A DNA stretch of 64,000 nucleotides from Candidatus Azobacteroides sp. (lineage in GTDB: Bacteria > Bacteroidota > Bacteroidia > Bacteroidales > WRGA01), in assembly GCA_021201815.1 (NCBI GenBank), contig JAJQEC010000135.1:937-64936 (forward strand). Direction: 5' to 3'. The notes beneath the pieces were generated by a model that made no database searches, was not told the DNA's origin, and was given only the letters and a program-made list of their open reading frames with translations. The position numbers were made by a program, and so were the translations under genes. Position 1 is the stretch's first letter. Each line of letters begins with the position of its first letter. This document shows, in pieces, positions 3,522-27,233 of this stretch.

Positions 3522-5807
3522 TTAAGTAGTTATTTTTAAAGATAAAAAAGCAGTACGGGGAAGAGAAGGACCATAAATATAACCAGCATCCCTGTTGGCT
3601 CCTTTATCGAAATCTTTCTGATAACTATTAAAAATATTTTTTACTCCTCCGCTTACCTGCAGGTTCATGGATTTCAGGCGAAGGTCATAAGACGCTTTTA
3701 AACCCAGATCGAAGAACTGTGGTGTCCTTTCCAGTCTTGTTTCATCAATATATCCTTCGAAATGCGGGACAAGCATTTTTCCGGTATAAGTTCCGGTTGT
3801 TGAGACGGTAAATTGTTTGAAAGGGCCTGCGGTAAAAGTAAAATACCCGTATTGTTCAGGAGTACGCAGCATTTTCTTTTCAGGAGCAACCGATTCATCA
3901 TCCGTCCATTGACGGGCTTCACTATACCTGCTTTGCTGGAAAGTAAATCCGAACTGCAATTGAATAGCAGGAGAAGGTGCAACTTTTCCTTCCAGATTGA
4001 TTCCTGCCACATTTGCATGGTGACCGTTCCGGCGTTCATTGACAGGATTTCCTTCGTTATCTTCGGTCTGTACCAGGATAAATACATCATTCAAACGCGT
4101 ATAAAACCCTTCAGCCAGTAAATTAGCCTGTGTATTTCCTACATTAAAATAATAATCAAAAGAAGTACTGAAACTATGAGAATACTCCGGCTTCAGGTCT
4201 TTCGCATTCCGCGTTACCACCCCTTCATTATTCAGAAAGGAAACATGCAGGTCTTCATCAAACGTCTGGGGAGCCCGGAAACCCGAAGAGTAAGAAGCCC
4301 TCCACGAAAGATTCTGTATGATATCATATTTGATGTTAATCCTTGGGCTGAAAACAGGATCATCCAATAAGTTATGTTTGTCCAGCCGGGCACCCAGCAG
4401 AAATCCCCATTTGTTATTTTTCCATTCATTCTGGAAAAAGAATCCGGCTACCTTTGTCTTTTGTTTGAGTGTTCCCTCCCGGTAAGCAGGCAGGTCATCT
4501 TCCAGGTCATCATACTGATATTCCCCTCCGAATGTCATTTCTGCAGGCATAAATAATAACTCATCAAAGATATGCGTAAACTGGGCACCGGTTACAAAAG
4601 TCAGGTTCGTTGTCCGTCCGTACGCATCCGGATCTTTATCTGTTCCATAATAGCTTTTACGTAAAATATGCTGCAGGGAAGAATACGCATTCAGTTTATT
4701 TCTGCCATCCGGCGAAAACCAGTTGTAAGCAAGACTACCTCCGTTTGTATCATGATCCAGTTGTTCCGCAATATCTGCCTCATGGGGCGGACGTTCGAAG
4801 TTATTTCCTCCCCGGCGGTACTCATGCAGATTATGATATTCTAACGTTAATTTACTTTGGTTATTCAGCCGGTAATAAGAACGAAGTCCGATCGCATTAT
4901 TCACTATTTCCGGCAGTTCCGAGAAGCCGTCCCCATCATGGTCGTAATGAGACCGGTTCCGGTACGTACCATACAGGTACATTCCTGCTTTGTTGTCATC
5001 TGTTACGATCGAAGTATTCACGTTTACGGAATTATCCGGAGCTTTTCCCCCGATTAACTCGTAATTATATTCGGCAGAAAAAGAATTGCTCAGGGCTTCC
5101 TTCGTAATAATATTGATTGTTCCGGCGATAGCATTTGCTCCGTAGAGAGCAGAGCCTCCTCCGCGCACCACTTCCACCCGCTCGATCATATTCACAGGAA
5201 TCTGTTCCAGTCCGTAGACACCACTTAATGCACTGAAAACCGGACGGCTGTCGATAAGGATTTGAGAATAGGGTCCTTCAAGGCCATTAATCCGTACCTG
5301 TGTAAACCCGCAGTTCTGGCAATCGCTTTCTACCCGTACTCCCGGCTGAAAATTTAATCCTTGTGCCAGGCATACGGAATTGGTGGCGATAAATATTTTA
5401 GGATTTATCACACCTACCACGATGGAAGCCTCCTTCCGGTTGGTTTCGTTCCGGTTGGCACTCACCACCAGTTCATTCAGGGAAAATGCTTCTTCTTCTA
5501 CCAGAAAGTTAAGTTCCAGCGTTTGTCCTGCCTGAATCTCTACTTCCTGTTCTATCGTCTTATAACCCAGCCCGCTGACCTGTAACGTAATTTTTCCGGT
5601 TGGCAGGTTTTTCAGGAAGTAATGGCCGGTTCCATCTGTGGTAGTACCGACTACCGAGTTCTTTACCGCGATGGTAATATAAGAAATATGTTCGCCGGTT
5701 TGCATATCTTTTACGTCTCCTACGATGTTCGCATCGCTTTTATTACTTTGTGCAATTCCGGAAAATGAAATAAGGAATAATAAGACAGGGAATATATAGT
5801 GTTTCAT
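3522..5807 (-). CDS. TonB-dependent receptor with an N-terminal carboxypeptidase-regulatory-like domain
   Basis: Signal peptide. CarboxypepD_reg-like IVGDVKDMQTGEHISYITIAVKN...GHYFLKNLPTGKITLQVSGLGYK. Plug motif RVEVVRGGGSALYGANAIAGTINIITK. Long beta-barrel region. Confidence 0.9.
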   Translation of the reverse strand: MKHYIFPVLLFLISFSGIAQSNKSDANIVGDVKDMQTGEHISYITIAVKNSVVGTTTDGTGHYFLKNLPTGKITLQVSGLGYKTIEQEVEIQAGQTLELNFLVEEEAFSLNELVVSANRNETNRKEASIVVGVINPKIFIATNSVCLAQGLNFQPGVRVESDCQNCGFTQVRINGLEGPYSQILIDSRPVFSALSGVYGLEQIPVNMIERVEVVRGGGSALYGANAIAGTINIITKEALSNSFSAEYNYELIGGKAPDNSVNVNTSIVTDDNKAGMYLYGTYRNRSHYDHDGDGFSELPEIVNNAIGLRSYYRLNNQSKLTLEYHNLHEYRRGGNNFERPPHEADIAEQLDHDTNGGSLAYNWFSPDGRNKLNAYSSLQHILRKSYYGTDKDPDAYGRTTNLTFVTGAQFTHIFDELLFMPAEMTFGGEYQYDDLEDDLPAYREGTLKQKTKVAGFFFQNEWKNNKWGFLLGARLDKHNLLDDPVFSPRINIKYDIIQNLSWRASYSSGFRAPQTFDEDLHVSFLNNEGVVTRNAKDLKPEYSHSFSTSFDYYFNVGNTQANLLAEGFYTRLNDVFILVQTEDNEGNPVNERRNGHHANVAGINLEGKVAPSPAIQLQFGFTFQQSRYSEARQWTDDESVAPEKKMLRTPEQYGYFTFTAGPFKQFTVSTTGTYTGKMLVPHFEGYIDETRLERTPQFFDLGLKASYDLRLKSMNLQVSGGVKNIFNSYQKDFDKGANRDAGYIYGPSLPRTAFLSLKITT

Positions 5808-6017
5808 TGTTGCTGATTTTATTATTAAATAGGGAGAATAAGATAATCGGTAAACACAGACATGTAGAAAGTATAAAATACCCTATTTTTACTTTTTACC
5901 CGTTACCTTTTACTTACTCATATTATGTAAGTGAGTAAACAACATGGTTTCCCAGCTATCCGGATCTCAGGATGCTGAAAATAATGGTTATTTACCTGAA
6001 AAGAAAATAAAATAAAA

Positions 6018-6383
6018 TCAGCAAGCCGGAGGAGCACGTGGATTTGTGTGCAGGCAGTTTTTTACCTGTGCCTCTTCAAGCAGAAGAATATTCTCTATCC
6101 GGTAAGCACAAACGACTGGTTCCGAAACTACCGGAACAAGCAGGTCATTATCAATTACCGTTTTATTATAAGTGTCGATAAGTACATATTCCAGAGAAGT
6201 ATGAGAATGCGATTGAACCGGAATATCATTTCTGAAATCTTTGAACCAGTGAGAGTGGAAGATTAACGTCCCGTTTACCCGGTGACTATGGTAAAAGAAA
6301 GTAATATTGCTGTAGTAACCAACAAACAGCAGCAGCAAAAAAATGCGAAGAAAAGATAATATGTTCTTTTTCATTTTATACAT
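6018..6383 (-). CDS. Small membrane-anchored His-rich protein of unknown function, upstream of the TonB-dependent receptor
   Basis: N-terminal TM helix (ILSFLRIFLLLLFVGYY), then FYHSH...FHSHWF...QSHSHTS His clusters. A -7 box TATCTTTG on the minus strand (6404-6411) lies just upstream. Same strand as the receptor. Confidence 0.5.
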   Translation of the reverse strand: MYKMKKNILSFLRIFLLLLFVGYYSNITFFYHSHRVNGTLIFHSHWFKDFRNDIPVQSHSHTSLEYVLIDTYNKTVIDNDLLVPVVSEPVVCAYRIENILLLEEAQVKNCLHTNPRAPPAC

Positions 6384-6580
6384 GCTGTTTCTTTTTTCCG
6401 GTACAAAGATAACATTTTAACGTTATGTGTTAAATACCCTATAGTAGTGATAAATATTTTTTTGATTAAATTTTCCGTTATGGATCATACATACAAATTT
6501 TTCCCCTTATTTATCAGTTCGTTAGAATATCCTTAATTGAAAAAGACAGATATTTTCCCATCAATTAAAAAGATATCGGC

Positions 6581-6588
6581 TATCTTTG
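6581..6588 (+). promoter_or_regulatory. -7 promoter box TATCTTTG for the riboswitch-btuB transcript
   Basis: TAnnTTTG match about 15-20 nt upstream of the first riboswitch helix. Confidence 0.45.
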
Positions 6589-6604
6589 CGGTCGGTTTTG
6601 TGTC

Positions 6605-6800
6605 GTATTTTCTGTTTCTTCAGAAAAACGATGAAAAGGGAATCAGGTGGAAATCCTGAACAGACCCGTTGCTGTAAGCTCTATTCAATAACTATTAAAT
6701 AAGTTTCCGGACAATACTCAATCCACTGTTCTTTAAAAAGAATGGGAAGGAAGTTCCGGAACGGAGTAAGTTAGAAGACCTGCCAGAACTTTATCGTTAA
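6605..6800 (+). promoter_or_regulatory. Cobalamin (B12) riboswitch
   Basis: Conserved core AAAAGGGAAUCAGGUGGAAAUCCUGAACAGACCCGUUGCUGUAA (about 6634-6678). CCACUG...UGGGAAGG (about 6723-6750). B12 box AGUUAGAAGACCUGCC (6769-6784). It lies upstream of a TonB-dependent receptor. Confidence 0.85.
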
Positions 6801-6990
6801 AAGCTTTTGGGGAGATAGAGCTTGAGACAAACACCGCAGGTGGACAGATGATGGTCTACCCTGGCGTTTATCCCAACATTATTTTTTTGGAATGTCTTTT
6901 ATTTTGTATCTCTTAAAAGATACGGAATAGAAAACCGTTTCATGATTTCCTGTATGAAAGCTGTTTTGAAAAAACCGTAAAATAGCTCGC

Positions 6991-9036
6991 ATGTCTTTTG
7001 TAAGAACATATTGTATCCTTTTCATACTTAGCTGCTGGCAGTGGGTCTTTCCCCAAAGTCCACAGGATACCATCTATCAGTTGCCGGATGTGGAAGTGGT
7101 GGCTAACCGGTATAAAGAAGTCATTCCTTCCCAAAAACTTACAGGAAAAGAACTGGAATTGCTTAGCAGTCATTCCGTAGCGGATGCAGTGCGTTATTTC
7201 TCCGGGGTTCAAATTAAGGATTACGGAGGGGTAGGAGGATTGAAAACAGTAGATATCCGGAGCATGGGTACTAACCATATGGGCGTTTTTTATGATGGGA
7301 TCCAATTGGGAAATGCACAAAACGGACAGATTGATCTGGGGAAATTTTCGCTGGATAACCTGGAAGAAATTTCCCTTTATAATGGTCAGAAAAGTGAAAT
7401 ATTTCAACCTGCAAAAGATTTTGGTTCGGCAGGAACCATTTACCTGCGGACAAGAAAGCCCTCTTTTAAAGAAAACAAAAAAACAAACATGCGGGGTTTT
7501 TTCCGGACAGGTTCTTTCGATTTGGTGAACCCTTCTGTCCTATGGGAACAGAAACTCAGTGAAAGTGTGAGCCTCTCTTTGAATGCCGAATATATTTATT
7601 CTTCCGGTAAATATAAGTTCCGCTACCGGAAAGTATTTCAGGATGGAAGTGTGGCATGGGATACGACAGCTACCCGTCATAACGGTGATATAAAAGCATT
7701 GCGCCTGGAAAGTGGCTTGAATGGATTTATCCGGGACGGAAGCTGGAACCTCAAAGCTTATTATTATGACTCGGAACGGGGCATTCCGGGAGCTATTGTA
7801 AACAATGTCTGGCAGCGCTCACAACGCCAGTGGGACAGAAATTTCTTTACTCAGGGAAGTTTCCGGAAACAACTTTTGCCGCAATATGATATTCAGGTAA
7901 ATATGAAATATGCCCGGGATTATATGCATTATCTTAATCCCGATACTACCCTGATGTATATTGATAATGTCTTTATTCAACAGGAAATATATGCTTCCGT
8001 AGCAAATAAATATGCGGTGTTCTCTACCTGGGATGTCGCGCTTTCTGTCGATTATCAGTGGAATACGCTGGATGCGGATTTGCAGGATTTTGTTTATCCG
8101 GAACGGAATACTTTACTAGTAGCACTTGCCACGGCTTTTGAATGGAAACGTTTTAAAGGACAAGCAAGTATATTGGGAACTTATGTTTTTGAAGACGTTT
8201 CCCGGAAAGACTACGGCCAAGAGGCTTCCTCTTCATCCGGAAAACCGGAAAATAAGCAGGAATATACCCCTGCTGTCTTTCTCTCTTACCAGCCTTTCAG
8301 TCAATATAATTTAAATCTGCGGGCCTTTTATAAGAATATTTTCCGGATGCCTACTTTTAATGATCTATATTATACGGATATCGGAAATGTGGCTTTACGC
8401 CCCGAATATACCCGACAATATAACCTCGGATTTCAATATGTCACTTCGTTTCATCGTCGTTTCTTTAAAGGAATAAACTTTAGTGCAGATGCCTATTACA
8501 ATGAAGTAACAGATAAGATTATTGCCGTTCCCAAAGGCAATGGGCAGTATCGCTGGATGATGATGAATCTCGGATATGTAGAGATCCGGGGCATTGATGT
8601 GACCGGACGCATGCATGGTACCCTCCCTTATGATATTGGCTGGCAGGTAAGCGTAAGCTATACTTACCAGAAAGCCCAGGACTTTTCCGATCCTTCGGAC
8701 AATGATCCGGAAGCAGGTACATACGGAGGTCAGATTGCTTACATTCCATGGCATAGTGGTTCGGTGATTGCACGCTTCATGTATAAAAAGTGGGATCTGA
8801 ACTATAGTTTTATTTATGTGGGAGAACGGTATCACAATTCCTCCAACATCCTGCAAAACCATGAACAACCCTGGTACACACACGACCTGACAATAGGACG
8901 GAGCTTTGTATGGAACAAGACTGCGGGCAGGTTATCCGCAGAAGTCAATAATATATTTGACCAACAATATGATGTGGTATTGAATTATCCGATGCCCGGA
9001 AGAAATTATAAGCTGATTCTGAAAGTTGAACTGTAA
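6991..9036 (+). CDS. btuB: TonB-dependent corrinoid receptor (BtuB-like)
   Basis: First gene after the cobalamin riboswitch. TonB-box-like LPDVEVVANR. Plug region ADAVRYFSGVQIKDYGGVGGLKTVDIRSMGTNHMGVFYDGIQLGNAQNGQIDL. C-terminal barrel strands ...NYPMPGRNYKLILKVEL. Confidence 0.85.
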   Translation: MSFVRTYCILFILSCWQWVFPQSPQDTIYQLPDVEVVANRYKEVIPSQKLTGKELELLSSHSVADAVRYFSGVQIKDYGGVGGLKTVDIRSMGTNHMGVFYDGIQLGNAQNGQIDLGKFSLDNLEEISLYNGQKSEIFQPAKDFGSAGTIYLRTRKPSFKENKKTNMRGFFRTGSFDLVNPSVLWEQKLSESVSLSLNAEYIYSSGKYKFRYRKVFQDGSVAWDTTATRHNGDIKALRLESGLNGFIRDGSWNLKAYYYDSERGIPGAIVNNVWQRSQRQWDRNFFTQGSFRKQLLPQYDIQVNMKYARDYMHYLNPDTTLMYIDNVFIQQEIYASVANKYAVFSTWDVALSVDYQWNTLDADLQDFVYPERNTLLVALATAFEWKRFKGQASILGTYVFEDVSRKDYGQEASSSSGKPENKQEYTPAVFLSYQPFSQYNLNLRAFYKNIFRMPTFNDLYYTDIGNVALRPEYTRQYNLGFQYVTSFHRRFFKGINFSADAYYNEVTDKIIAVPKGNGQYRWMMMNLGYVEIRGIDVTGRMHGTLPYDIGWQVSVSYTYQKAQDFSDPSDNDPEAGTYGGQIAYIPWHSGSVIARFMYKKWDLNYSFIYVGERYHNSSNILQNHEQPWYTHDLTIGRSFVWNKTAGRLSAEVNNIFDQQYDVVLNYPMPGRNYKLILKVEL

Positions 9037-9048
9037 TCTGTTTAGTTA

Positions 9049-10200
9049 ATGAAAAGAAAAAAAATAGATCTGTTGCTATATGTCGTTTTTATTCTTTCCC
9101 TGTTTTCCTGCCGGGAAGATATCATCGTCTTTATCCCGGAACAGGTAGAAGTATCTATTCCCGAATATACTTCTATTCAGGGTTTTTACCTCCTGAACGA
9201 AGGAAATATGGGAAGTAATAAATCAACCCTAGATTATTATGATTATACCACCGGAGTGTATAGTCGGAATATTTTCGGAGCAGCAAATCCTACTGTCCCT
9301 AAAGAAATGGGAGACGTGGGAAATGACATTAAAATTTACGGAAGTAAACTATACGCAGTCATTAATTGCTCCGATAAAGTAGAAGTAATGGATGCTTCCA
9401 CGGCTGTCCGGCTCGGACAGATTGATATCCCCAACTGCAGGTATATCCGTTTCCATAAAGGATATGCGTATGTCACTTCTTATGCAGGTCCTGTCCGGCT
9501 TAATCCGGAGTATGAACAACTGGGATACGTGGCAAAAGTTGATACCACTACATTTGAAGTACTGGAAGAATGCCTGGTCGGTTTTCAGCCGGATGAACTG
9601 GAAATTGTCAATAATAAGATTTACGTGGCAAATTCCGGTGGATATATGTTTCCCAATTATGAAAATACCGTATCTGTGATTGATATAGACAGTTTCCGGG
9701 AAATCAGGCGAATTGAAGTTGCCATTAACCTCCACAGGCTTCGGGCGGACCGATACGGAAACCTCTGGGTAAGTTCCCGGGGAAATTATTATAGAATCCC
9801 TTCCCGGTTGTATCAGATAGATACAAAAGAAGACCGGCTGGTAGATTCCCTGGATATTGCCGTTTCCAATTTTCATCTGGATGGAGATTCTCTCTATATA
9901 TATAGTACGGAATGGAGTTATATCAGTATGTCCAATGAAATTACATACGGTATTGTAGATGTGGCTAAAAAGGAAGTCGTAACCCGTAATTTTATTACGG
10001 ATGGAACAGACCGGAATATCCGGATTCCTTATGGGATCATGGTAAATCCTATTACAAAAGATATTTATGTAACGGATGCCAAAAATTACGTGTCTCCGGG
10101 TACCCTGTATTGCTTTGATAAGGAAGGAAAACAAAAATGGAATGTGAGGACCGGAGATATACCTGCCCATTTCGTTTTCCTGGGAGAACTAAAAGAATAA
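9049..10200 (+). CDS. Surface lipoprotein, YncE-like beta-propeller; BtuG-like candidate
   Basis: Lipobox LSLFSC. Repeated blade-like segments (FYLLNEGNMGSNKSTLDYYD, KLYAVINCSDKVEVMD, KIYVANSGG, NLWVSSRGN, DIYVTDAKNY). Position immediately after btuB matches gut Bacteroides btuB-btuG loci. The BtuG equivalence is inference. Confidence 0.7.
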   Translation: MKRKKIDLLLYVVFILSLFSCREDIIVFIPEQVEVSIPEYTSIQGFYLLNEGNMGSNKSTLDYYDYTTGVYSRNIFGAANPTVPKEMGDVGNDIKIYGSKLYAVINCSDKVEVMDASTAVRLGQIDIPNCRYIRFHKGYAYVTSYAGPVRLNPEYEQLGYVAKVDTTTFEVLEECLVGFQPDELEIVNNKIYVANSGGYMFPNYENTVSVIDIDSFREIRRIEVAINLHRLRADRYGNLWVSSRGNYYRIPSRLYQIDTKEDRLVDSLDIAVSNFHLDGDSLYIYSTEWSYISMSNEITYGIVDVAKKEVVTRNFITDGTDRNIRIPYGIMVNPITKDIYVTDAKNYVSPGTLYCFDKEGKQKWNVRTGDIPAHFVFLGELKE

Positions 10201-10221
10201 AAACGTAATACCATAGTAAAT

Positions 10222-11418
10222 ATGAAAAAAAGAATCGTACTTAACATCGGATTATTCCTTTTCCTTTTGCCGGGAATAGAGGCACAGGAAAATTCTCCTT
10301 ACATCAGTAAAGTATATGATTTTATGCCTGCTCCCGGGCAATTTGTCAATGACTTACCTTTCTATGAGGAAGGAGATACGAAAGAGAATATGATCCTTAA
10401 AGTAGAAGAATGTATTACCGGAGATGAAAAAATACTTGTCTCTCTGGGTGCATACGGCGGGTATATTGTTTTCGGATTCGATCATCCTGTAGTAAATGTT
10501 CCCGGAGTAAATGATTTTAAAATATGGGGAAATGCTTTTTATGCCAGTGAAAATCCCAATCCCAATGCGCCGGCCGAAGGGGGTAGTTGTGAACCTGGTA
10601 TCGTCATGGTTTCTTATGATGCCAATGGAAACGGGATTCCGGACGATGAATGGTATGAACTGGCCGGAAGTGAATACAACAGTCCTGCGACAATCCATAA
10701 TTATTCCATCACTTATTATAAACCGGATCCGGAAAAGGAACCGGTACCCGATACGGACTACCCTTATTTAAATGACCTGACTTATATCAGGTGGACAGAC
10801 AACCAGGGAGAAACCGGATATGTTGCCGGAAATGTGTTTCATGAACAATCTTACTGGCCGGAATGGTATGACGGAGAGACACTTACTTTTACCGGTGCCC
10901 GGTTGGCTGACAATTACATAGACGAAAGCGGTGATGGTTCTTATTATGTACAGTATGCCTATGGGTGGGGATATGCCGACAATCACCCCAATACGGATGA
11001 ACGTGCTGACTTTAATATCGAATGGGCAGTGGATAAAGATGGGAATGCTGTTTATTTGCCGGAAATCCATTTTATAAAAGTTTATACAGCCGTCAACCAA
11101 TATTGCGGATGGCTGGGTGAAACTTCCACAGAAGTAATGGGTGCGGTGGACCTGCATGCGGATGCGACTTCTTCCGTCCGGTATGGAAAAGAAGAGCAGC
11201 TGAGCAAGATATGGTTTAACACATGGACCCGTCAATTATATGTGCATACGGAAAAGCAGCAGGATATTTTTATCCATTCGGTAACAGGAAAGATGGTAAG
11301 TAATTGGGTACTGGCTCCGGGGGAAAATGAAATAAGCCTTTCCGATCTCTCTTCCGGAGTTTATTTAGTCAAGGTGGGAAATACAACTGCAAAAATAATT
11401 ATCACAGATTTATATTAA
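10222..11418 (+). CDS. Secreted protein of unrecognised family with a T9SS C-terminal sorting domain
   Basis: Signal peptide ...LLPGIEAQ. C-terminus IFIHSVTGKMVSNWVLAPGENEISLSDLSSGVYLVKVGNTTAKIIITDLY is CTD-like. I recognise no catalytic motif. Confidence 0.7.
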   Translation: MKKRIVLNIGLFLFLLPGIEAQENSPYISKVYDFMPAPGQFVNDLPFYEEGDTKENMILKVEECITGDEKILVSLGAYGGYIVFGFDHPVVNVPGVNDFKIWGNAFYASENPNPNAPAEGGSCEPGIVMVSYDANGNGIPDDEWYELAGSEYNSPATIHNYSITYYKPDPEKEPVPDTDYPYLNDLTYIRWTDNQGETGYVAGNVFHEQSYWPEWYDGETLTFTGARLADNYIDESGDGSYYVQYAYGWGYADNHPNTDERADFNIEWAVDKDGNAVYLPEIHFIKVYTAVNQYCGWLGETSTEVMGAVDLHADATSSVRYGKEEQLSKIWFNTWTRQLYVHTEKQQDIFIHSVTGKMVSNWVLAPGENEISLSDLSSGVYLVKVGNTTAKIIITDLY

Positions 11419-11441
11419 TACATCCTCTAATATATTATTCA

Positions 11442-13106
11442 ATGAAAAAAAGAAATACACTGATTTGTTTTCTTCTTCTTTGTTATTTGTCCGCAAATGC
11501 CGGTCTGAATGTAGATTATACAAAAGGCATTTTCTTTCTGAATGAAGACTGGTTCGGACATACAAATAGTTCGCTGAATTTTATGACAGCAGAAGGAGAG
11601 TTTCTTTATAGAGTTTATACGGAAGCAAATCCCGGAGAAGCTTTTGGCTGTACCGCTCAGTTTGCTGCTATTTACGGAGATAAATTATATGTGATTTCCA
11701 AGCAGAAAGCCGAAGCAGGGGATACGGATTATATTCCCGGTGGAAGGATTGTTGTGGCAGATGCCATCACCCTGAAAAAAATAAAAGGAATTGACAACAT
11801 CGGAGGGAGTGATGGCCGTTCTTTTTTAGGAGTAGATAAAAAAACAGCATACATCGGCACTTCCAATGGAATCTTTCTGTTTGACCTGGAAGAACTTGCG
11901 GTTGGCGATCTGATCGAAGGGACCGATGGAGCTTCCGGTTTGTACTCCTCACAGACCGGAATGATGGTTCGTGCAGGGAGATATGTTTTCGCCGCAAAGC
12001 AGGGGGAAGGAGTGCTGGTTATTGATGCAACTACCCATCGAATCCATACGGTAATTGCGGAAGCAGATATTGTGACCCTTACCCGGAGTAAGGACGGAAG
12101 GGTATGGGCTGCACGCAACGATGCATTCGTGAAAATTAATCCGTATACCCTGGAGACGGAAACCATTGCATTTCCGGAGGGTGTTACGATCGTGGCTTCA
12201 TGGCCGGCCTGGAACGCCGGAAGTTTATGTGCCGGTGTCCGGGAAAATGTCTTGTATTTTACCAATCAGGGGAATTTCGGTTTCAACGGAGAAACCGTAC
12301 GGAAATATTACATTGATTCCGGAGAGTTTGATCCGTCCTTTTTCATATTACCGGACCAGACAGATGAAGAAGGCAAAATCCTGAGATACCGCCAGACTTT
12401 TTACGGGGCCGGCGTAAGAGTAGATCCGGCTTCTGAAAATCTCATCATTACAACTACTGAAACAGGGGGTAGCTCTCATTATCAGAAGAACTGGGTTCAT
12501 ATTGTAAGTGGAAACAGCGGAGAACTGATTGATACGAAAGAACTGGATGCATACTATTGGTTTCCGGCAATGCCCTTTTTCCCGAATAATACTCTTCCGG
12601 AAACAATAGACCTGACAGAATGGAATCCGGAAGAGGGAGAATCTTATTCTCTTTGGCTGGGAGGAGTCGTAGTAAACAAGGAAAATCCTGATTTGGGTAC
12701 TGTAGAGTCCGTATTATCTAATTCGGATGAATCTCTTGTATCCGCCATACTGGAAGATGACATGCTTCTCCTGACGCCTTTATCAGGAGAAGCCGGAACA
12801 GCTACTATCATCCTTCAATTTAATTCCAACGGACAACTTATTCCACATGCTATAGAAGTAAAAATCGGAATGGTTTCCGGTTTAAAGGGTGGATTACAGT
12901 CCGGTTCTTATTACAGAATGTCCGGGAAAACATTGTTTGTTTATGCCGGTTCCGGAGAAAAAGTAATTCTTTCGGACCTTCAGGGACGGATTCTTTATTC
13001 GATGGTTGCCACAGAAAAAGAACTGGTTATTCCTTCGAATACTTTGCCTGAAGGCATCTACCTTTTACATATCGGAGGAATAAATCATAAGATTATTATT
13101 AAATAA
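11442..13106 (+). CDS. Secreted YncE-like beta-propeller plus Ig-like domain plus T9SS CTD; divergent paralogue of 9049..10200
   Basis: Signal peptide. N-terminus GIFFLNEDWFGHTNSSLNF parallels GFYLLNEGNMGSNKSTLDY of the lipoprotein. KLYVISKQ blade motif. C-terminus KVILSDLQGRILYS...GIYLLHIGGINHKIIIK. Confidence 0.75.
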   Translation: MKKRNTLICFLLLCYLSANAGLNVDYTKGIFFLNEDWFGHTNSSLNFMTAEGEFLYRVYTEANPGEAFGCTAQFAAIYGDKLYVISKQKAEAGDTDYIPGGRIVVADAITLKKIKGIDNIGGSDGRSFLGVDKKTAYIGTSNGIFLFDLEELAVGDLIEGTDGASGLYSSQTGMMVRAGRYVFAAKQGEGVLVIDATTHRIHTVIAEADIVTLTRSKDGRVWAARNDAFVKINPYTLETETIAFPEGVTIVASWPAWNAGSLCAGVRENVLYFTNQGNFGFNGETVRKYYIDSGEFDPSFFILPDQTDEEGKILRYRQTFYGAGVRVDPASENLIITTTETGGSSHYQKNWVHIVSGNSGELIDTKELDAYYWFPAMPFFPNNTLPETIDLTEWNPEEGESYSLWLGGVVVNKENPDLGTVESVLSNSDESLVSAILEDDMLLLTPLSGEAGTATIILQFNSNGQLIPHAIEVKIGMVSGLKGGLQSGSYYRMSGKTLFVYAGSGEKVILSDLQGRILYSMVATEKELVIPSNTLPEGIYLLHIGGINHKIIIK

Positions 13107-13270
13107 AGATAGGTGTACTATCTGTTTTTACCAAGAATGATTTTATTCCCGTGCTTAAAAAGCAGTACTGTTAACCCGGGTCTTGGAAAACCTCACCTTG
13201 CCAGTACGCTAGTAGGAGTGCCAGAGGTAATCCCAGGATTTTCCACCTACCTTGCCATCAATGCTTTACA

Positions 13271-13318
13271 ACCACGGAGTGGCGACATATTATTAGCCGT
13301 GCTGCCTCAGCACACGGT
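13271..13318 (+). repeat. REP-like double-hairpin repeat, copy a
   Basis: CCACGGAGTGG hairpin, then ATATTATTA, then GCCGTGCTGCCTCAGCACACGG hairpin. Related copies lie at 15922-15970, 27184-27233 (inverted) and 27385-27433. Confidence 0.6.
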
Positions 13319-13419
13319 ATTTATTTAAAAGAAAAGATAGCTATATAAACAAAAGACTATTTTAATATCGTTCAAAAAATTAATTACCGGTTTATAAGCC
13401 AATTTAAAATTAAAAACAA

Positions 13420-15741
13420 ATGAAGAAAATTTTCTCTTTTTTATTCCTGTTTACAGTAGTTTGTGGAAGCAGTATGTTTGCACAACAAAAGAGTTATTCC
13501 GAAAGAAATTTCTCTTTTAATAACTTCCGGTCTTTAAACGAAAAATCGGAGTCGGAACAAAAAATCAAAACCCTCACCCGTTCCACAACTGCAGAAGCAC
13601 TGGGGCACGTGGTTTTTGCTATTGAAAAGTTTACGCTGGGACAGGGATATTTTGTAGAACCCATTCTTGTTCCTTTTTATGAGGGAGAATCCTGTGCGCA
13701 TATTTTGCTGAATGTCGTAGGAGAAGAAAATTGTGATTACTCGCCTTTTCCGAATTTTTACCTTTCAGCTATTAAAGATGCGGACTCCGGAGTTCTCAAT
13801 ATTCCGCAGTATATATATGACCAGTGCGGATTTGACGATGATTACCTGGATTCGGATATCAATGACGATGAATGGTTGGGAGAATTCGATTACACCTTTA
13901 TGTCCGGATGGATGTATTTTGTAAATAATGTCGCAGCTCCTGTAGGCATGGGAGCCTATAATCCGCAGGACGGAGATGTAATACGCGTTCAGTTCACCCT
14001 TCAGGGGTACGGAATGGATCTGGGTTCTGACTTTATGGGTTCCGGAGGAGTTGCTGTCGTAGCCAATAAAGATGAACTGACCCGAATGGTCGCAACCATC
14101 AATAGTGCGGAAAATAAAACGGAGTTACTAGCGGATGCAGCTATAAAAACAGCTTACGAAAATGCCTATGCCATTTTAGAAGATATGACAAGTTCGCAGG
14201 CGCTGACGAACGAAGCGGCAGGTAAGCTGAAGAATGCACTGGAAGCATTTGAAGCCGGAAATAATCCCGGTTTGCCTGACTATCAGAGCTACTGGCCGTC
14301 TTTCCGCAGAGATGATAATAACCAGGCGATTGTAAATACCCCATTGGCAGTTCGGGAAAGGGATATTCAGGAACTATGGAAAAGACAGATCGGTTCCGGA
14401 TGGTCTTCCAATGGAGCTCCTATTATTGTGAATGACAATGTGTATATTACCATTGGTAATAAAATTATGATCATCGATCCGGAAACAGGAACAATTGTAC
14501 GGGAAAGTACCCTTGCCGGTAGCGTCGGATTCTTTTCGACAATTGCTTATGGCGACGGAATGATCTTTGTACCTGTCGGAAACGGAGTTATTCAGGCAAT
14601 CAATGCCGAAACACTGGAATCCCTGTGGAAAACGGAAACGATAAGCAGTCACCAGACATTGTGCCAGATCACATATAAAGATGGTCTCTTATATACCGGA
14701 ACGGTGAAAATGGGAAATCCGAATACCGGTTATTTTTTCTGTATTGATGTAACGGACGAAGATCCTTCCCGACCGGATGAAATTAAAGAATGGAAATGGC
14801 AGTCGGATGATACCGGCGGGTACTACTGGAGTGGTGCTGTGGTGGTAGGAGATGCGGTTATCTTCGGTGGCGACAGTGGTGTTCTTTATTCCTGTAACCG
14901 GTTGACAGGGGAGAGGATCGATTCTTATGATATTCATGGTGAAAATGATCAGAGTACGAAAACGATCCGTTGTACTGTTTCTTATGATGAAGACACTCAA
15001 AGTGTATATTTTACAGGAAAAGAAACACAGATGGCTTATAAAGTCCCGATGAATGCCGATGGCAGCTTTGACAAGGATAATATCCTTACCTGTGAGCTGG
15101 CAGGACAGGCGACTACTGCCCTTGTGGTTTATAACGGCCGTGCGTATGTAACTTCCGGGACCATGACAAGTGATGGCGGGATGGATATAATCGATGTGAA
15201 CACCATGTCGTTAATCAGCAATGTAAATATCGGTGGTATTTCCCAGGCTTCTCCATTATTAACTACCGCGTATGCTACGGCTGAAAACAATTATAAGGTG
15301 TATCTTTATATTACCCTGAATAATGCAGCGGGAAGTATTGTCTGCATTGAAGATTACGAAGGAAATAACCAGCCTTTTGTAAAGTTTACTTATCAGCCTT
15401 CTACTGCACAATATGCTACCCATAGCCTGATTGCAGATGAAAAGGGTACTTTGTATTATAAGAATGATTCCGGTTATTTGTTTGCATTGGCTTCCGGGGG
15501 CACACCAACCGGTACCGACCAGATGACAGAGGAACGTTTCTCTGTATATCCGAATCCGTTTACGGACTACATTGTGGTTTCAACCGCAGCAGAAGAAACG
15601 GTTGCTGTTTATGATTTATCCGGAAAATGTGTGTTCAGTACTCTTTCAAAAGGAAATAGCACATGGATAGATACTTCTTCTTTCCCGAAAGGAGTTTACA
15701 TGGTTAAATGTGGATCGGAAGCAATGAAAATAGTAAAGTAA
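13420..15741 (+). CDS. Secreted protein: transcobalamin-like (DUF4430-type) domain, helical linker, PQQ/BamB-like beta-propeller, T9SS CTD
   Basis: Residues ~60-200 (GHVVFAIEKFTLGQGYFVEP...ESCAHILLNVVG...FMSGWMYFVNNVAAPVGMGAYNPQDGDVIRVQFT) fit my recollection of the DUF4430 signature (GW.Y.VN...y.l.dGD.i...). PQQ-like repeats are visible (NVYITIGNKIMIIDPETGTIVRE; GMIFVPVGNGVIQAINAETLESLWK). C-terminus FSVYPNPFTDYIVV...VAVYDLSGKCVF...GVYMVKCGSEAMKIVK. Confidence 0.75.
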   Translation: MKKIFSFLFLFTVVCGSSMFAQQKSYSERNFSFNNFRSLNEKSESEQKIKTLTRSTTAEALGHVVFAIEKFTLGQGYFVEPILVPFYEGESCAHILLNVVGEENCDYSPFPNFYLSAIKDADSGVLNIPQYIYDQCGFDDDYLDSDINDDEWLGEFDYTFMSGWMYFVNNVAAPVGMGAYNPQDGDVIRVQFTLQGYGMDLGSDFMGSGGVAVVANKDELTRMVATINSAENKTELLADAAIKTAYENAYAILEDMTSSQALTNEAAGKLKNALEAFEAGNNPGLPDYQSYWPSFRRDDNNQAIVNTPLAVRERDIQELWKRQIGSGWSSNGAPIIVNDNVYITIGNKIMIIDPETGTIVRESTLAGSVGFFSTIAYGDGMIFVPVGNGVIQAINAETLESLWKTETISSHQTLCQITYKDGLLYTGTVKMGNPNTGYFFCIDVTDEDPSRPDEIKEWKWQSDDTGGYYWSGAVVVGDAVIFGGDSGVLYSCNRLTGERIDSYDIHGENDQSTKTIRCTVSYDEDTQSVYFTGKETQMAYKVPMNADGSFDKDNILTCELAGQATTALVVYNGRAYVTSGTMTSDGGMDIIDVNTMSLISNVNIGGISQASPLLTTAYATAENNYKVYLYITLNNAAGSIVCIEDYEGNNQPFVKFTYQPSTAQYATHSLIADEKGTLYYKNDSGYLFALASGGTPTGTDQMTEERFSVYPNPFTDYIVVSTAAEETVAVYDLSGKCVFSTLSKGNSTWIDTSSFPKGVYMVKCGSEAMKIVK

Positions 15742-15784
15742 AAAAATAAACGGGTTCTTCGGAATTTCAGTTTAGTTTGGGTTT

Positions 15785-15822
15785 CCCCTCTGTGAATCTT
15801 TGATTTTCAGAGGGGATTTTTT
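15785..15822 (+). terminator. Rho-independent terminator closing the B12 locus
   Basis: CCCCTCTG (15785-15792) pairs with CAGAGGGG (15808-15815), followed by ATTTTTT. Confidence 0.7.
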
Positions 15823-15870
15823 AATGTGTCAATGTGCTAATGTGCCAATGTTTCAATATGTTAATGTGCT
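15823..15870. repeat. Six tandem 8-mers (AATGTGNN family)
   Basis: AATGTGTC AATGTGCT AATGTGCC AATGTTTC AATATGTT AATGTGCT, strict period 8. Confidence 0.8.
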
Positions 15871-15921
15871 ACTAAGAAAATATGGGCATCTCCTTTTATG
15901 TGTATCTCTATTCTACCAACA

Positions 15922-15970
15922 AGCCACGTAGTGGCGTTATATTATTAGCCGTGCGGCCTCAGCCCACGGG
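15922..15970 (+). repeat. REP-like double-hairpin repeat, copy b
   Basis: GCCACGTAGTGGC hairpin, TTATATTATTA, then GCCGTGCGGCCTCAGCCCACGG hairpin. Confidence 0.6.
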
Positions 15971-15973
15971 CCT

Positions 15974-16021
15974 AATGTGCCGATGTGCTAATATGCCAAT
16001 ATACTAATGTGATAATGGGGA
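15974..16021. repeat. Second array of six tandem 8-mers
   Basis: AATGTGCC GATGTGCT AATATGCC AATATACT AATGTGAT AATGGGGA. Same family and period as 15823-15870. The two arrays bracket REP-like copy b. Confidence 0.75.
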
Positions 16022-16113
16022 AATAACCTCTTATATATAGCCACAATTCTTAAGTTATTTTAAGTTAAATGTATTGAGAATTCAAGCAATCACATTATAA
16101 AAACAAAAACAGT

Positions 16114-16240
16114 CAAAAGTGCATCCGGATTTTTCAAAAGCGGATGCGGATTTTTCAAAAGCGCATCCGCTTTTATGTCAATTTTCACTCCGCTTTTGAA
16201 AAAAGCAGATGCACTTTTTGTAAAAGTGGATGCGCTTTTT
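16114..16240. repeat. Five ~21-bp A-tract/T-tract units with a GCATCC or GGATGC core
   Basis: CAAAAGTGCATCCGGATTTTT, CAAAAGCGGATGCGGATTTTT, CAAAAGCGCATCCGCTTTT, (24-nt gap), AAAAAAGCAGATGCACTTTTT, GTAAAAGTGGATGCGCTTTTT. Core orientation is GCATCC in units 1 and 3 and G/A-GATGC in units 2, 4 and 5. Confidence 0.7.
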
Positions 16241-16803
16241 AAGAAAAATATAAGGAAAATGCGGGGTAAAAACAGGAACGGGATATGCCTACACAAAGCT
16301 AAAAAAGGGTATGACGCAGGAAAAGAAAGAAATAAAAACGGTGTTTTTCTTTCCGGAGGGCGCCTGATTCCCATATACAGAGGAATGAAAGGAGAGAGAT
16401 GATTCGGAAGAAAAATCGTTTTGTAAAGTTTTATACGAAATTTCCGGGTGATTCCGGTCGGATAAAACAGCCTCCTTTTTTCGTAAAAACAGAAGATTTC
16501 TTTCCCTTTTTCCTTCCCGGAAGAATAAAAAGAAAGAACTCCCTGCAAGAAGCAAAAGGATAGGAGTGCATAATATGTATAAAATGTCCGGCATCTTATT
16601 ATTTTATCTTTCGTAATCTTTTCAAAGATACAACATAAAAAAGCAAAAGTCAAGTCCCGGAAGAAAAAACAGACTAGTTTGTTTTATACTCATGCCTCAA
16701 TCAACAGGTAAATGATACCTTTTTCCTGCCTCTGTTACGTACTCCGATTGGTTTTGAGATAAAAAAATATCCACTTTACTCTATAAGTTGCGGGTTTTTA
16801 GTT

Positions 16804-17934
16804 TTATGGCATGGTAATCGGGATATATACTTCCGTGAGCAGCTCTTCTTCCGGAACTTCTGATGAAGTATTCAGGTATTTCTCAAAGTGAAGGGTATCT
16901 CTTAATTGGTAGGGACTGTTTGGTATCCAGTACCGGTATATATTACAATACAGGTTTTTCATTTCTTTGTAGGGACCTTTGTGAGTAAAAACCGCGTACA
17001 TCCCTCCTTCCAGGGCTTGTCTCCCGAACTTGCCGGCAGGCCTTACTTTTTCAGGCATATTGACACATGCATATATCCGGCAGTATTCTGGCCTGGTTAA
17101 CGTAGAAATGTCACAGCTTATGCACAGGTATTCGTGGTTTTTATCCGGAACACCGGAAAGAGAAAGAAAATCCGTTAATTTGTTCCATGCCTCTAAAAAA
17201 GCGTTCTTTTGGATATAGGGATTAACGACTTGTGTGCAGATAATGGTTTTCGGAGAAATCATTCTTATTTCGGGAGATAATTCATGATAAGGGACAGGTT
17301 CTTTTATAGGAATAGTTAAATCGGCAGGTTTTTTCCTGAATTCCGAAGGGGTCATGCCCATTTTTTTCTTAAAAGCTCTGGATAAAGCATAGAGGCTTTT
17401 ATAACCGGTTTGATCTGCAATTTCTGCCAGGGGCAGATCGGTGGTCTGTAATTTAAAGGCGGCTTTTTCCAGGCGGAGGCGCTGGATATATTCCCCGGGA
17501 CTTTCATTCATGATGGCTTTGAATATCCGGTGAAAGTGAAATTCCGAAATAGTTGCGATGGAAGCCAGATCGGATAAATTTATGGTGGAAGTCAAATGGG
17601 TATTGATAAAGTCAAGTACTTGATTGACTGATTTATAATATTCCTGATGGGTGGAACAATGGGACTTCCACCTTTTAAGTTCCTGTAATTGTACGGTGGC
17701 TCTAAGCATTTGTTCTTCTTCTGTTAAATAATGCTCTCCGGAAGCAGCTATGGGATTCGGGTAACTTTTAACCATATCCGTAATAAAATCCGTGAAAGAG
17801 AAATTATCCGTGAATACCCCCTCTTTAAAACAAAAACAGCAATAATCCGTATTAATAGACTGATCCTTATTTTTACCGAAATGTTCTGTTGCTGCCATGG
17901 GCATGCCACAACTCTGACATATTTTTTCTTCCAT
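16804..17934 (-). CDS. AraC-family transcription factor with an N-terminal zinc ribbon and a C-terminal GyrI-like effector-binding domain
   Basis: CQSCGMPM...DYCCFC Cys4 motif. AraC HTH region (LSDLASIATISEFHFHRIFK...IAEIADQTGYKSLYALSRAFKKKMGMTPSEFR). GyrI-like C-terminus (GGMYAVFTHKGPYKEM...). Confidence 0.85.
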   Translation of the reverse strand: MEEKICQSCGMPMAATEHFGKNKDQSINTDYCCFCFKEGVFTDNFSFTDFITDMVKSYPNPIAASGEHYLTEEEQMLRATVQLQELKRWKSHCSTHQEYYKSVNQVLDFINTHLTSTINLSDLASIATISEFHFHRIFKAIMNESPGEYIQRLRLEKAAFKLQTTDLPLAEIADQTGYKSLYALSRAFKKKMGMTPSEFRKKPADLTIPIKEPVPYHELSPEIRMISPKTIICTQVVNPYIQKNAFLEAWNKLTDFLSLSGVPDKNHEYLCISCDISTLTRPEYCRIYACVNMPEKVRPAGKFGRQALEGGMYAVFTHKGPYKEMKNLYCNIYRYWIPNSPYQLRDTLHFEKYLNTSSEVPEEELLTEVYIPITMP

Positions 17935-17935
17935 A

Positions 17936-18619
17936 TTATTCGTTCGTATTGGTTTTTTCTGTGCCGAATGTATAAGGACAAACCTTACGGCAGTTCCAGC
18001 ATCTGAGTTCCAGTTTCCCTTTTATTGTTTTATAACATGTATGATAACAGCCTTTTTGCCCGAATAATGTTTCGTCCTGTAAAGCACCGGGCGGACATTT
18101 TTGTACACATATATTGCAATGGTCGCAAACCGTGTATTCTGCTAGAGGATCCGATTCCAGTTCCATAGAGGTAAGGATAGCGGAAAGCCATATCATATTT
18201 CCTGTTTTGTCGTTTGTCAGGAGATAATTACGGGCAATCTTTCCGATCCCGGCCAGTTCTCCTGCATGTTTCAAAGACAGATACCCCATAAAGCGTCCTT
18301 TTTCCCATGCCCCTCCGACAGAACCGACCGGCTTTACATCCACATTGTCTTTCTTTATCGTTTTAGCTATCTTTCTGGCTATGTCATTCATTTTCTTTAT
18401 CATCCTATTCCGGATGTCCGTATAGGTAAGAGTATCTTTGTAAAGGATATCAGGCGGCAGCGCACCGGCAAGAACAATTACAGAATGGCAGGAGGGTAGT
18501 AAATCTGTCGGATGATGTCCTTCCGGAGCACGGTCGAATCTATCTGTAGCGGCTATTCCTACAAGTGTTGCCCCTTCATTTATACAACGTTCTTTTATAC
18601 TCTCTTTGGAAAATTCCAT
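17936..18619 (-). CDS. QueG-like 4Fe-4S protein (epoxyqueuosine-reductase/reductive-dehalogenase-like fold)
   Basis: CDHCNICVQKCPPGAL ferredoxin-type motif plus a second Cys cluster (CWNCRKVCP). Its stop lies 1 nt from the AraC start, suggesting an operon. Confidence 0.7.
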   Translation of the reverse strand: MEFSKESIKERCINEGATLVGIAATDRFDRAPEGHHPTDLLPSCHSVIVLAGALPPDILYKDTLTYTDIRNRMIKKMNDIARKIAKTIKKDNVDVKPVGSVGGAWEKGRFMGYLSLKHAGELAGIGKIARNYLLTNDKTGNMIWLSAILTSMELESDPLAEYTVCDHCNICVQKCPPGALQDETLFGQKGCYHTCYKTIKGKLELRCWNCRKVCPYTFGTEKTNTNE

Positions 18620-18800
18620 GCCTTTTTATTGGCAAAAATAAAGGAAATAAAAACAGGTATATTTATCCATTCTTGCGAAAGTTATTTCAAATATAAAATT
18701 TTAAGGTTATAAAACTGCAAAACACGGAAAGACACAATTTATTATGTTGCTTCTTTCCGTGTCCTGCGGTTTTGATATATTATTTCTCTGTGTTTCCCGG

Positions 18801-19805: not shown

Positions 19806-20013
19806 GGAGGTAATCAGGGTATTTATTTAAAACCGAACGGTCTCTCTTTTCTTAAAATAAGAACAGGAGATGGCGACAGTTGCTTTTTTATTAAATATAT
19901 AAGTTAAAAAGCAAACAAAGAAGAAGAAAGATTTGTTCAAAAAGCCGTTCCGCCAGAACGGCTTTTTGAATTTTAAGGTCACAGGAGAAGTGTTTTAATA
20001 AAATATCAATTGT

Positions 20014-21028: not shown

Positions 21029-21043
21029 ATCTGTTCGTTACAC

Positions 21044-21682: not shown

Positions 21683-21867
21683 AAATACTAACTTCTTTGT
21701 TCTGTTTTCTTTTATTCAAAAAATAGAAGCACTTTTTTCTTTTTTTATAAATTTCTTATAATAAGTAGTATATACTGAAAGTATATATCCGCCTTTGCAG
21801 TCAGAAGTTTTACGGAGCGTTTTTAGTTGTTCCTATAAAAGTTGTCTTTATAAATAGAACAATATAG

Positions 21868-27183: not shown

Positions 27184-27233
27184 AGCCGTGTGCTGAGGCA
27201 GCACGGCTAATGACATGGCGCCACTCTGTGGCT
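27184..27233 (-). repeat. REP-like double-hairpin repeat, copy c (inverted)
   Basis: AGCCGTGTGCTGAGGCAGCACGGCTAAT...GCCACTCTGTGGC is the reverse complement of the pattern at 13271-13318. Confidence 0.6.

Follow-up and report, generated by a model that had tools for sequence, protein, structure and literature searches.

A stretch of 64,000 nucleotides from Candidatus Azobacteroides sp. (contig JAJQEC010000135.1; the window hereafter, to whose positions all coordinates refer) carries a gene unit headed by a cobalamin riboswitch, in which a BtuB-type outer-membrane transporter and a BtuG-type lipoprotein are followed by three proteins with signal peptides and predicted C-terminal sorting domains (CTDs) of the type IX secretion system (T9SS). 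An earlier note, made from the sequence alone, had proposed that such a unit could serve corrinoid capture. As judged from sequence, genes 3 and 4 belong to the characterised B12-binder families BtuH and BtuK, a point missed in that note, and this assignment makes the locus the counterpart of B12 operon 1 of Bacteroides thetaiotaomicron. Known families of B12 binders would hence be delivered by a new route, with T9SS tags in place of lipid anchors, and the predicted arrangement is common in Bacteroidales genomes. The features of the unit, together with the T9SS translocon gene encoded in the same window, are as follows:

6581-6588, + strand: candidate Bacteroidota -7 element TATCTTTG (TAnnTTTG), at the 5' edge of the aptamer match
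6581-6801, + strand: cobalamin riboswitch aptamer (Rfam RF00174, full model 1-189)
6802-6990, + strand: leader and expression platform with several hairpins (minimum-free-energy fold)
6991-9036, + strand: gene 1, BtuB1-like TonB-dependent corrinoid transporter, 681 aa (Plug PF07715 and barrel PF00593)
9049-10200, + strand: gene 2, BtuG-like seven-bladed propeller surface lipoprotein, 383 aa (DUF5074, 67 bits; lipobox)
10222-11418, + strand: gene 3, BtuH-type protein with a signal peptidase I (SPI) signal peptide and a T9SS CTD, 398 aa (structure-sequence matches and CTD hidden Markov models, HMMs)
10294-11160, + strand: BtuH domain of gene 3 (residues 25-313, matching the BtuG1 C-terminal domain and BtuH2)
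11236-11403, + strand: CTD of gene 3 (TIGR04183, PF18962)
11442-13106, + strand: gene 4, BtuK-like propeller protein with an SPI signal peptide and a diverged T9SS CTD, 554 aa
11523-12584, + strand: DUF5074 propeller of gene 4 (382 bits)
12927-13103, + strand: CTD of gene 4 (curated HMMs below cut-off; own HMM)
13420-15741, + strand: gene 5, putative three-module T9SS cargo, 773 aa (DUF4430, PQQ_2, CTD)
15784-15823, + strand: intrinsic terminator closing the unit (hairpin and TTTTTT)
50203-57627, + strand: sprA/sov, T9SS outer-membrane translocon, outside the operon (TIGR04189, 2777 bits against a cut-off of 200)

The riboswitch stands as the earlier note had described it: the RF00174 match reaches 76 bits where 31.5 is the gathering score (E 6e-17), lies 190 nt 5' of the btuB-like start and has the same orientation as the B12-related gene downstream. 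The promoter that had been placed in front of it is a weak candidate only. TATCTTTG is the sole + strand TAnnTTTG in the intergenic region 6384-6990, but 87 copies in the window against 81 expected amount to no enrichment of the motif, and this makes the call weak; a sigma-70 scan returned 39 sites against 31.7 expected and was uninformative, as expected for Bacteroidota. The minimum-free-energy fold of 6590-7000 has a z of -2.7 and contains one hairpin near 6838-6866 and another, of 15 bp, ahead of the start codon. Five + strand open reading frames (ORFs) follow, separated in order by 12, 21, 23 and 313 bp, so that the short gaps previously described hold for the first three junctions and not for the last. 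The strong terminator expected near 15785 is present, its arms (15784-15798 and 15802-15816; 15 nt, 87% complementary) enclosing a 3-nt loop and preceding TTTTTT; it was found by direct sequence reading and an inverted-repeat search, and the program terminator scan missed it. No btuFCD-like gene occurs among the scanned window ORFs of at least 150 aa, in agreement with a unit confined to the outer membrane and surface, and sprA is indeed encoded in the window.

Corrinoid-binder families in genes 1 to 4

The product of gene 1 combines a Plug domain with a 22-strand TonB-dependent barrel and is closely similar to the solved BtuB1 of B. thetaiotaomicron (PDB 8blw_A; E 2.3e-136), along residues 24-678, near its full length. 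When scored against the proteobacterial BtuB equivalogs it reaches 100.9 bits with TIGR01779 (cut-off 599.7) and 75.5 bits with NF007926 (cut-off 836); it is a BtuB of the Bacteroides type and not of the E. coli type. Gene 2 starts 12 bp after btuB and encodes a propeller of the DUF5074/YncE type. Its N-terminus, read directly, has the lipobox LFSC and then C-R-E-D, resembling a lipoprotein export signal, and its closest solved relatives are the propeller of BtuG1 (8blw_B residues 31-362, E 1e-44) and the structures 8ptf and 8ptd (E about 1e-44 to 1e-45). Both the BtuB-like receptor and the single propeller lipoprotein of the earlier note are thereby placed in defined families. The hallmark of BtuG is its femtomolar to picomolar binding of B12 and the stable complex that it forms with BtuB.

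Pfam labelled only the tail of gene 3. The rest of the protein aligns to the C-terminal domain of BtuG1 (8blw_B residues 393-661) with an E of 1.3e-77 and to the B12-binding domain of BtuH2 (7biz_A) with an E of 3.5e-41. Taking the B12 and metal ligands of BtuH2 as listed in PMC13616437, the residues Q333, F334, N399, F401, E406, H476, Y510, D522, W577, S582 and E584 are identical in gene 3, and the sole change among the mapped ligands is Y475, which is replaced by F. Gene 3 therefore encodes a globular domain of the B12-binding BtuH type in which the corrin and the Na/Ca-phosphate ligands are kept. Its N-terminus, MKKRIVLNIGLFLFLLPGIEA|QENSPYI, contains no cysteine; instead of the lipid anchor of BtuH lipoproteins, the protein has a CTD that scores 31.4 bits with TIGR04183 and 28.7 bits with PF18962.

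Gene 4 is a distant paralogue of gene 2 (22% identity), and its closest solved relative is BtuK1 bound to cyanocobalamin (PDB 9s6c, E 3e-12). The B12-binding loop of BtuK1, NEGWFGH (with E23, W25 and H28), aligns with NEDWFGH in gene 4, and T60 and K76 are also kept, which places this DUF5074-type propeller among the BtuK proteins. The layout is another one: BtuK is a lipoprotein with an N-terminal PKD domain, whereas gene 4 has an SPI-type signal (…LSANA|G), begins its propeller at residue 28 and carries extra C-terminal domains and a CTD 3' of it.

The three-module product of gene 5

The last protein of the unit is divided into an N-terminal module, a propeller and a tail, and two further elements lie in the gap that precedes its gene:

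13107-13130, + strand: weak A+T-rich hairpin and U run, possible partial terminator, just 3' of the gene 4 stop
13250-13320, + strand: copy of an intergenic repeat of about 70 bp with two hairpins, in the gap between genes 4 and 5
13588-14259, + strand: transcobalamin-beta-like DUF4430 module and three-helix bundle of gene 5 (residues ~57-280; AlphaFold2 model, Pfam)
14272-15519, + strand: eight-bladed BamB/YxaL-like propeller of gene 5 (residues ~285-700; PQQ_2, structure model)
15544-15738, + strand: canonical CTD of gene 5 (residues 709-773; TIGR04183, PF18962)

DUF4430 (PF14478) is recognised at 35.8 bits against a cut-off of 23.8, PQQ_2 at 47.9 bits, and the CTD at 48 bits with TIGR04183 and 49.3 bits with PF18962. 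In the AlphaFold2 model of the N-terminal module (pLDDT, the model's per-residue confidence, 82.7) a beta domain is followed by a three-helix bundle. In a Foldseek search of the PDB, the top 19 matches of this module were all transcobalamin, intrinsic factor, haptocorrin or the bacterial DUF4430 structure 3u7z, the matches in the transcobalamin family being to the beta domain or to the holo-protein. The match has a probability of about 1 and a TM score of about 0.6 against the isolated beta domain, but an E of only 2e-3 to 3e-2. The transcobalamin-like domain of the earlier note has in this way gained support at the level of the fold. In gene 5 no alpha6-alpha6 barrel was found, the domain that in transcobalamin-like binders encloses B12 together with the beta domain, and the beta-like module leads into the three-helix bundle and the propeller. 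For the propeller (pLDDT 83.8) the best matches are BamB and YxaL. Its assignment as a B12 propeller of the BtuG/BtuK type was considered and rejected, since the best structural matches are BamB, YxaL and PQQ enzymes.

It could be argued that genes 1 to 4 make up the B12 unit and that gene 5, acquired from Firmicutes, has nothing to do with it, being transcribed on its own and encoding a surface or adhesin-like protein that happens to lie next door. This is an alternative that we regard as unlikely, and it draws on the 313-bp gap. Directly after gene 4 this gap has a hairpin (arms 13100-13112 and 13118-13130) followed by GTTTTTA, and further on a copy of the repeat, whose hairpins are GCCAC-GGA-GTGGC and CCGTGCTG-CCT-CAGCACACGG. 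The repeat occurs three times in the window (13250-13320 on the + strand, 15920-15970 on the + strand, 27186-27260 on the - strand), with 0 copies expected by chance, and one copy lies directly 3' of the operon terminator. Because the related loci of Viscerimonas tarda (L004) and of a Muribaculaceae genome (L007) have no such gap, the repeat resembles an insertion. A permissive Rfam scan of 13000-16800 detected neither a second riboswitch nor any known RNA in the gap, yielding only sub-threshold microRNA (miRNA)-like matches to a repeat array. On the other hand, the gap contains no TAnnTTTG motif. In V. tarda a gene 5 homologue with 59% identity follows its B12 operon after 92 bp, and in L007 the gene 4 homologue is overlapped by a relative made up of propeller and CTD. 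The predicted transcobalamin beta-domain fold likewise speaks against an unrelated neighbour.

The distribution of the DUF4430 module has also to be considered. At E <= 0.001, 1487 cluster representatives are related to this module. Only three Bacteroidota proteins with the module were found, namely the window's, V. tarda P0122 and the metagenomic P0193; the last of these bears a CTD and lies directly 3' of a CTD-ending gene. The relatives of the module and those of the propeller otherwise look Gram-positive (41 to 48% identity), those with a source name come from Firmicutes or Mycoplasmatota, and several to many have SLH or LPXTG anchors. The homologue of Eubacterium callanderi (P0128) is 41 to 45% identical in both the N-terminal module and the propeller. 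The alternative of an unrelated neighbour is favoured by this distribution, by the BamB/YxaL-like propeller, and by the Firmicutes homologue loci, where no riboswitch was found within 10 kb. In a search of these loci for a B12 link, no BtuH, BtuK or BtuG relatives were found. Against the alternative, the Firmicutes homologues stand directly upstream of energy-coupling factor (ECF) transporter genes and a second DUF4430 gene: in E. callanderi the homologue overlaps the start of the ECF S-component gene, and the second DUF4430 gene and then the CbiQ and ABC ATPase genes come next. Such neighbours are consistent with a role in substrate capture. The Gram-positive spread of the relatives points to a transfer from Firmicutes, and it looks from the sequences as if gene 5 was acquired in this way and then re-tagged with a CTD.

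The neighbourhood of ECF, second DUF4430, CbiQ and ABC ATPase genes was seen at 10001-22000 of loci L005 and L006, which come from E. callanderi and a metagenome. On the other side of gene 5, an array of units of about 21 nt (AAAAGCGGATGCGGATTTTTC), in direct and inverted orientation, occupies 16103-16245 between the operon terminator and a divergent regulator gene of the AraC/RobA family (16804-17934, - strand). This array gives sub-threshold matches to plant miRNAs in Rfam and could be an operator array.

Sorting tails and recurrence in Bacteroidales

A protein was taken as T9SS type A cargo when its C-terminus matched TIGR04183 (cut-off 23) or PF18962 (cut-off 27). The tails of genes 3 and 5 exceed both cut-offs, lie at the extreme C-terminus and align with the canonical motifs VYPNP, IYDLSG, GIYLVK and KIIK. 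By inspection, and not by a predictor, the signal peptides of genes 3, 4 and 5 are cysteine-free or non-lipobox, with the cleavage contexts …A|Q in genes 3 and 5 and ANA|G in gene 4. Of the three signal-peptide proteins with a CTD that had been claimed, two are consequently clear and gene 4 is borderline. The same division is found in the HMM searches that the earlier note had suggested for the four downstream proteins, which recovered DUF5074, DUF4430, PQQ_2 and the CTDs of genes 3 and 5 and left the CTD of gene 4 below cut-off. The gene 4 tail is nevertheless recognised (E 7e-9) by our own HMM, built from the tails of BtuH homologues; it aligns with canonical CTDs, and the gene 4 orthologue in V. 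tarda carries PF18962.

The protein of gene 3 has 6903 relatives, the best of which are mostly of about 395 aa, often with PF18962 and the source name 'T9SS type A sorting domain-containing protein', and come from Dysgonomonas, Azobacteroides, Muribaculaceae, Prevotellaceae, Tannerellaceae and Marinilabiliaceae. When one genome was scanned for each species, 592 relatives emerged, and the counts that follow refer to the best 80 loci of these. A btuB1-like gene is present in 65 of the 80 loci, nearly always in the order btuB-btuG-btuH, and in 53 of these 65 at least one CTD gene lies 3' of btuB. Of the 87 BtuH homologues, 51 place the B12 domain right after a signal peptide and have a CTD, 24 (Bacteroides nordii among them) are lipoproteins with an extra N-terminal domain and no CTD, and 12 have a signal peptide and a short tail. 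When the window's own tail is added to the 51 from the loci, 43 of the 52 match TIGR04183. Gene-4-like ORFs show the loop NEDW[FY]GH in 40 of 50 cases and a CTD in 31 of 50. In 35 of 62 loci a crude regular expression picked up a riboswitch close upstream of btuB, which is an undercount, as Rfam detected one in 7 of 8 loci that the expression had scored as negative; nearly all of the tested loci thus have one. CTD-bearing neighbours in riboswitch-btuB loci, whose survey had been recommended, are therefore widespread in Bacteroidales and not a curiosity of the window. In addition, a lipobox and a CTD are mutually exclusive on any one BtuH protein, as predicted for alternative surface-delivery signals.

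The closest named relative is V. tarda (Dysgonomonadaceae), whose B12 unit is the same as that of the window and is likewise headed by a riboswitch (97.8 bits). In this species BtuH and the BtuK-like propeller are fused into one protein of 853 aa with a single CTD (L004 7347-9908, + strand), suggesting that the two modules are functionally linked. Between btuB and btuG of the same locus, the opposite strand carries an inserted ParE toxin-antitoxin pair (5578-6086, - strand). Some other loci have additional cobalamin riboswitches, a second or third one, directly 3' of btuH (L035 10211-10421; L041 10229-10429 and 16691-16889; L033 about 10266-10335), which would put the downstream CTD genes under a B12 switch of their own.

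The tails might also be read as structural Ig-like domains, for example of the DUF6383 kind, and not as T9SS signals, the proteins being periplasmic or brought to the surface in some other manner. The gene 4 tail, with its weak DUF6383 matches in addition to its low scores, would fit this idea, as would the CTD-like tails of a Bacteroides nordii locus and the short tails of the 12 BtuH homologues, which come from Prevotellaceae, 'Bacteroidaceae' and metagenome-assembled genomes of Muribaculaceae and were left unclassified because they match no Pfam family. What makes a purely structural role highly improbable is that the tails of genes 3 and 5 and most tails of the BtuH homologues are recognised by the sorting-domain models, that they sit at the very end of the protein with the canonical motifs, that tailed forms have no lipobox and lipobox forms no tail, and that SprA is encoded in the window. 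The short tails are 50-60 aa long and end in …GIYIEHS..RKVIVK, resembling only the last strands of a CTD; they are found in the loci L014, L019, L022, L030, L032, L037, L042, L043, L048, L051, L053, L059 and L073. A 609-aa protein encoded at 1436-3265 (+ strand) of the window has a DUF6383-like C-terminal domain (22 bits, cut-off 23.7) and may be a surface protein of the CTD type.

As regards the surroundings of the unit, a second TonB-dependent receptor with a CarboxypepD_reg domain (3522-5807, - strand) and a small His-rich ORF of 121 aa matching no family (6018-6383, - strand) are both divergent from the riboswitch. Two small RNA genes of the FopS family (RF04319; 27443-27516, - strand, 76.8 bits, and 29565-29636, - strand, 70.5 bits) flank two paralogous DUF4861 genes (28033-29220, + strand, and 29874-31130, - strand). 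Elsewhere, the window encodes a TonB C-terminal-domain protein (26569-27105, - strand), a HemD-like uroporphyrinogen-III synthase (33036-33800, + strand) and a protein of the tetrapyrrole-methylase family (63055-63738, - strand).

Proposed mechanism and comparison with known systems

Taken together, the unit is best read as a Bacteroidota B12 scavenging operon of the BtuB-BtuG type whose extra binders are delivered via the T9SS, a reading to which we give a probability of about 0.75. A number of observations weigh against it. The CTD of gene 4 remains below both curated cut-offs (21.3 bits against 23 with TIGR04183, 14.4 against 27 with PF18962), the propeller of gene 5 is like BamB and YxaL and not like BtuG or BtuK, and the co-regulation of gene 5 is uncertain because of the gap with its hairpin, U run and repeat. 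SprA is the sole T9SS component seen in the window, PorU, PorV, PorZ and the anionic lipopolysaccharide (A-LPS) pathway not having been looked for. The Bacteroides nordii locus (L069, 9947-15962) has a lipoprotein-type BtuH alongside CTD-tailed proteins. Finally, the secretion, anchoring and B12 binding of the CTD-bearing members are what we infer from their sequences. In L069, the CTD-like tails recognised by our own HMM belong to two proteins, one BtuK-like (576 aa) and one with a BtuH domain (1421 aa). That the unit imports another tetrapyrrole or metabolite, its resemblance to B12 families being merely ancestral, is scarcely credible: the low TIGR01779 score of gene 1 would suit this notion, and against it a full-length cobalamin riboswitch heads the unit, the nearest solved structures are the B12-bound BtuB1G1, BtuH2 and BtuK1 of Bacteroides, and the B12 ligand residues are kept.

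In the mechanism that we favour, intracellular B12 would switch the operon off through the leader riboswitch. When the operon is expressed, its core would act like that of B. thetaiotaomicron: the BtuB1-like barrel would import the vitamin with TonB energy, and the BtuG-like propeller lipoprotein would act as its high-affinity lid. The BtuH-domain protein, the BtuK-like propeller protein and the transcobalamin beta-like protein would make up an outer tier, the last of them provided that gene 5 is co-transcribed with the others. Sec would carry these proteins over the inner membrane; they would next leave through the SprA translocon of the outer membrane and then lose the sorting domain. In their mature form they could be attached to A-LPS on the cell and its vesicles or be released into the medium, where they would bind corrinoids outside the cell and pass them to BtuG-BtuB.

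A wider version of this proposal can be put forward tentatively, and we consider it possible rather than probable. According to it, competitive B12 acquisition in a large share of Bacteroidales would depend on the T9SS; the BtuH-, BtuK- and transcobalamin-like binders would be its cargo, some of them soluble or vesicle-borne 'cobalaminophores' that return corrinoids to BtuG-BtuB as hemophores do haem, with a module captured from Firmicutes among them. How gut Bacteroidota scavenge corrinoids is at present explained by a 'lipoprotein-assisted relay', a model drawn from B. thetaiotaomicron. If T9SS delivery were true of many Bacteroidales, the T9SS would help to determine how communities of the gut, the mouth and the insect gut compete for vitamins, and binders that are attached to A-LPS, carried by vesicles or free in the medium might change the B12 reach of the cell. 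B12-binding domains with interchangeable delivery signals (lipid, CTD or Gram-positive anchors) would in addition represent a case of modular evolution with transfer across phyla, and the many proteins whose sole annotation is 'T9SS type A sorting domain-containing protein' would gain a putative function.

The Btu literature (Putnam 2022, Abellon-Ruiz 2023, Juodeikis 2025, the DUF4465 paper and a September 2026 review), deals with lipoproteins only, and the terms T9SS and type IX do not appear in these papers. In Putnam et al., BtuH homologues are examined for N-terminal accessory domains only. A paper on Muribaculaceae genomes describes T9SS genes and 161 CTD proteins, mostly hypothetical, and reports B12 transporters separately. 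More generally, no link between the T9SS and BtuG, BtuB, cobalamin, corrinoids or cobamides was found in the full texts searched, most subscription journals being outside their coverage. To this extent the statement of the earlier note that no T9SS-dependent B12 module had been described still holds.

The closest known system is B12 operon 1 of B. thetaiotaomicron (BT1486-BT1491), which encodes BtuK1, BtuK2, BtuH1, BtuB1, BtuGH and BtuJ1, as described in PMC13616437 and PMC12751083. The counterparts in that species are lipoproteins and are induced 12- to 1000-fold without B12, according to PMC12751083. Operon 1 and the window share riboswitch control, an outer-membrane-only set of proteins, a BtuB1-type barrel, a BtuG propeller lipoprotein, a BtuH domain, a BtuK DUF5074 propeller and the B12 ligand residues. 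The differences begin with the mode of delivery. As the earlier note had stated for the accessory binders of gut Bacteroides, every accessory protein of B. thetaiotaomicron has a lipidation signal, and those of operon 1 are all N-terminally lipidated, whereas BtuH and BtuK of the window combine SPI signals with C-terminal T9SS sorting domains. B. thetaiotaomicron is a T9SS-negative species. BtuG and BtuH, which are fused in BT1490, are encoded by separate genes in the window, and the propeller is N-terminal in the BtuK-like protein, which has no PKD domain. In addition, the window unit lacks a BtuJ (DUF4465) gene and has the extra gene for a DUF4430-propeller-CTD protein. A similar rearrangement is seen on comparison with BtuH2 (BT1956, PDB 7BIZ), which shares with gene 3 the globular B12-binding domain with its corrin and phosphate/metal ligands: in the lipoprotein BtuH2 three N-terminal PKD domains precede a C-terminal B12 domain, whereas the B12 domain of gene 3 comes directly 3' of the signal peptide and a CTD takes the C-terminus.

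For gene 5 two families offer themselves for comparison. Its residues ~62-193 are predicted to take the fold shared by the beta domain of transcobalamin, intrinsic factor and haptocorrin (5NP4) and by DUF4430 (3U7Z). In contrast to the transcobalamin family, with which its identity is only 10 to 14%, it has no alpha6-alpha6 barrel and contains an insertion in the domain, and its module, a putative B12 binder, is joined with a helical bundle, a BamB-like propeller and a CTD. The Firmicutes proteins with DUF4430, Ig-like domains and a PQQ propeller, such as E. callanderi P0128, are extracellular and are encoded beside a vitamin-type transporter. They differ from gene 5 in that Ig-like domains, about 550 aa in all, separate the two modules, that some members of the wider Gram-positive family have SLH or LPXTG anchors, and that no riboswitch was found nearby.

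As for the secretion route, known T9SS cargo consists mostly of proteases, adhesins, glycosidases and haem-binding proteins. No corrinoid-binding T9SS cargo was named in the full texts searched, which cover few subscription journals. In their architecture, the tagged proteins of the window, with gene 4 as a borderline case, conform to type A cargo such as the gingipains and HBP35 of Porphyromonas gingivalis and the secreted enzymes of Flavobacterium johnsoniae, since in both a Sec signal peptide is combined with a C-terminal beta-sandwich of about 70-80 aa that matches TIGR04183/PF18962, and SprA/Sov is encoded in the genome.

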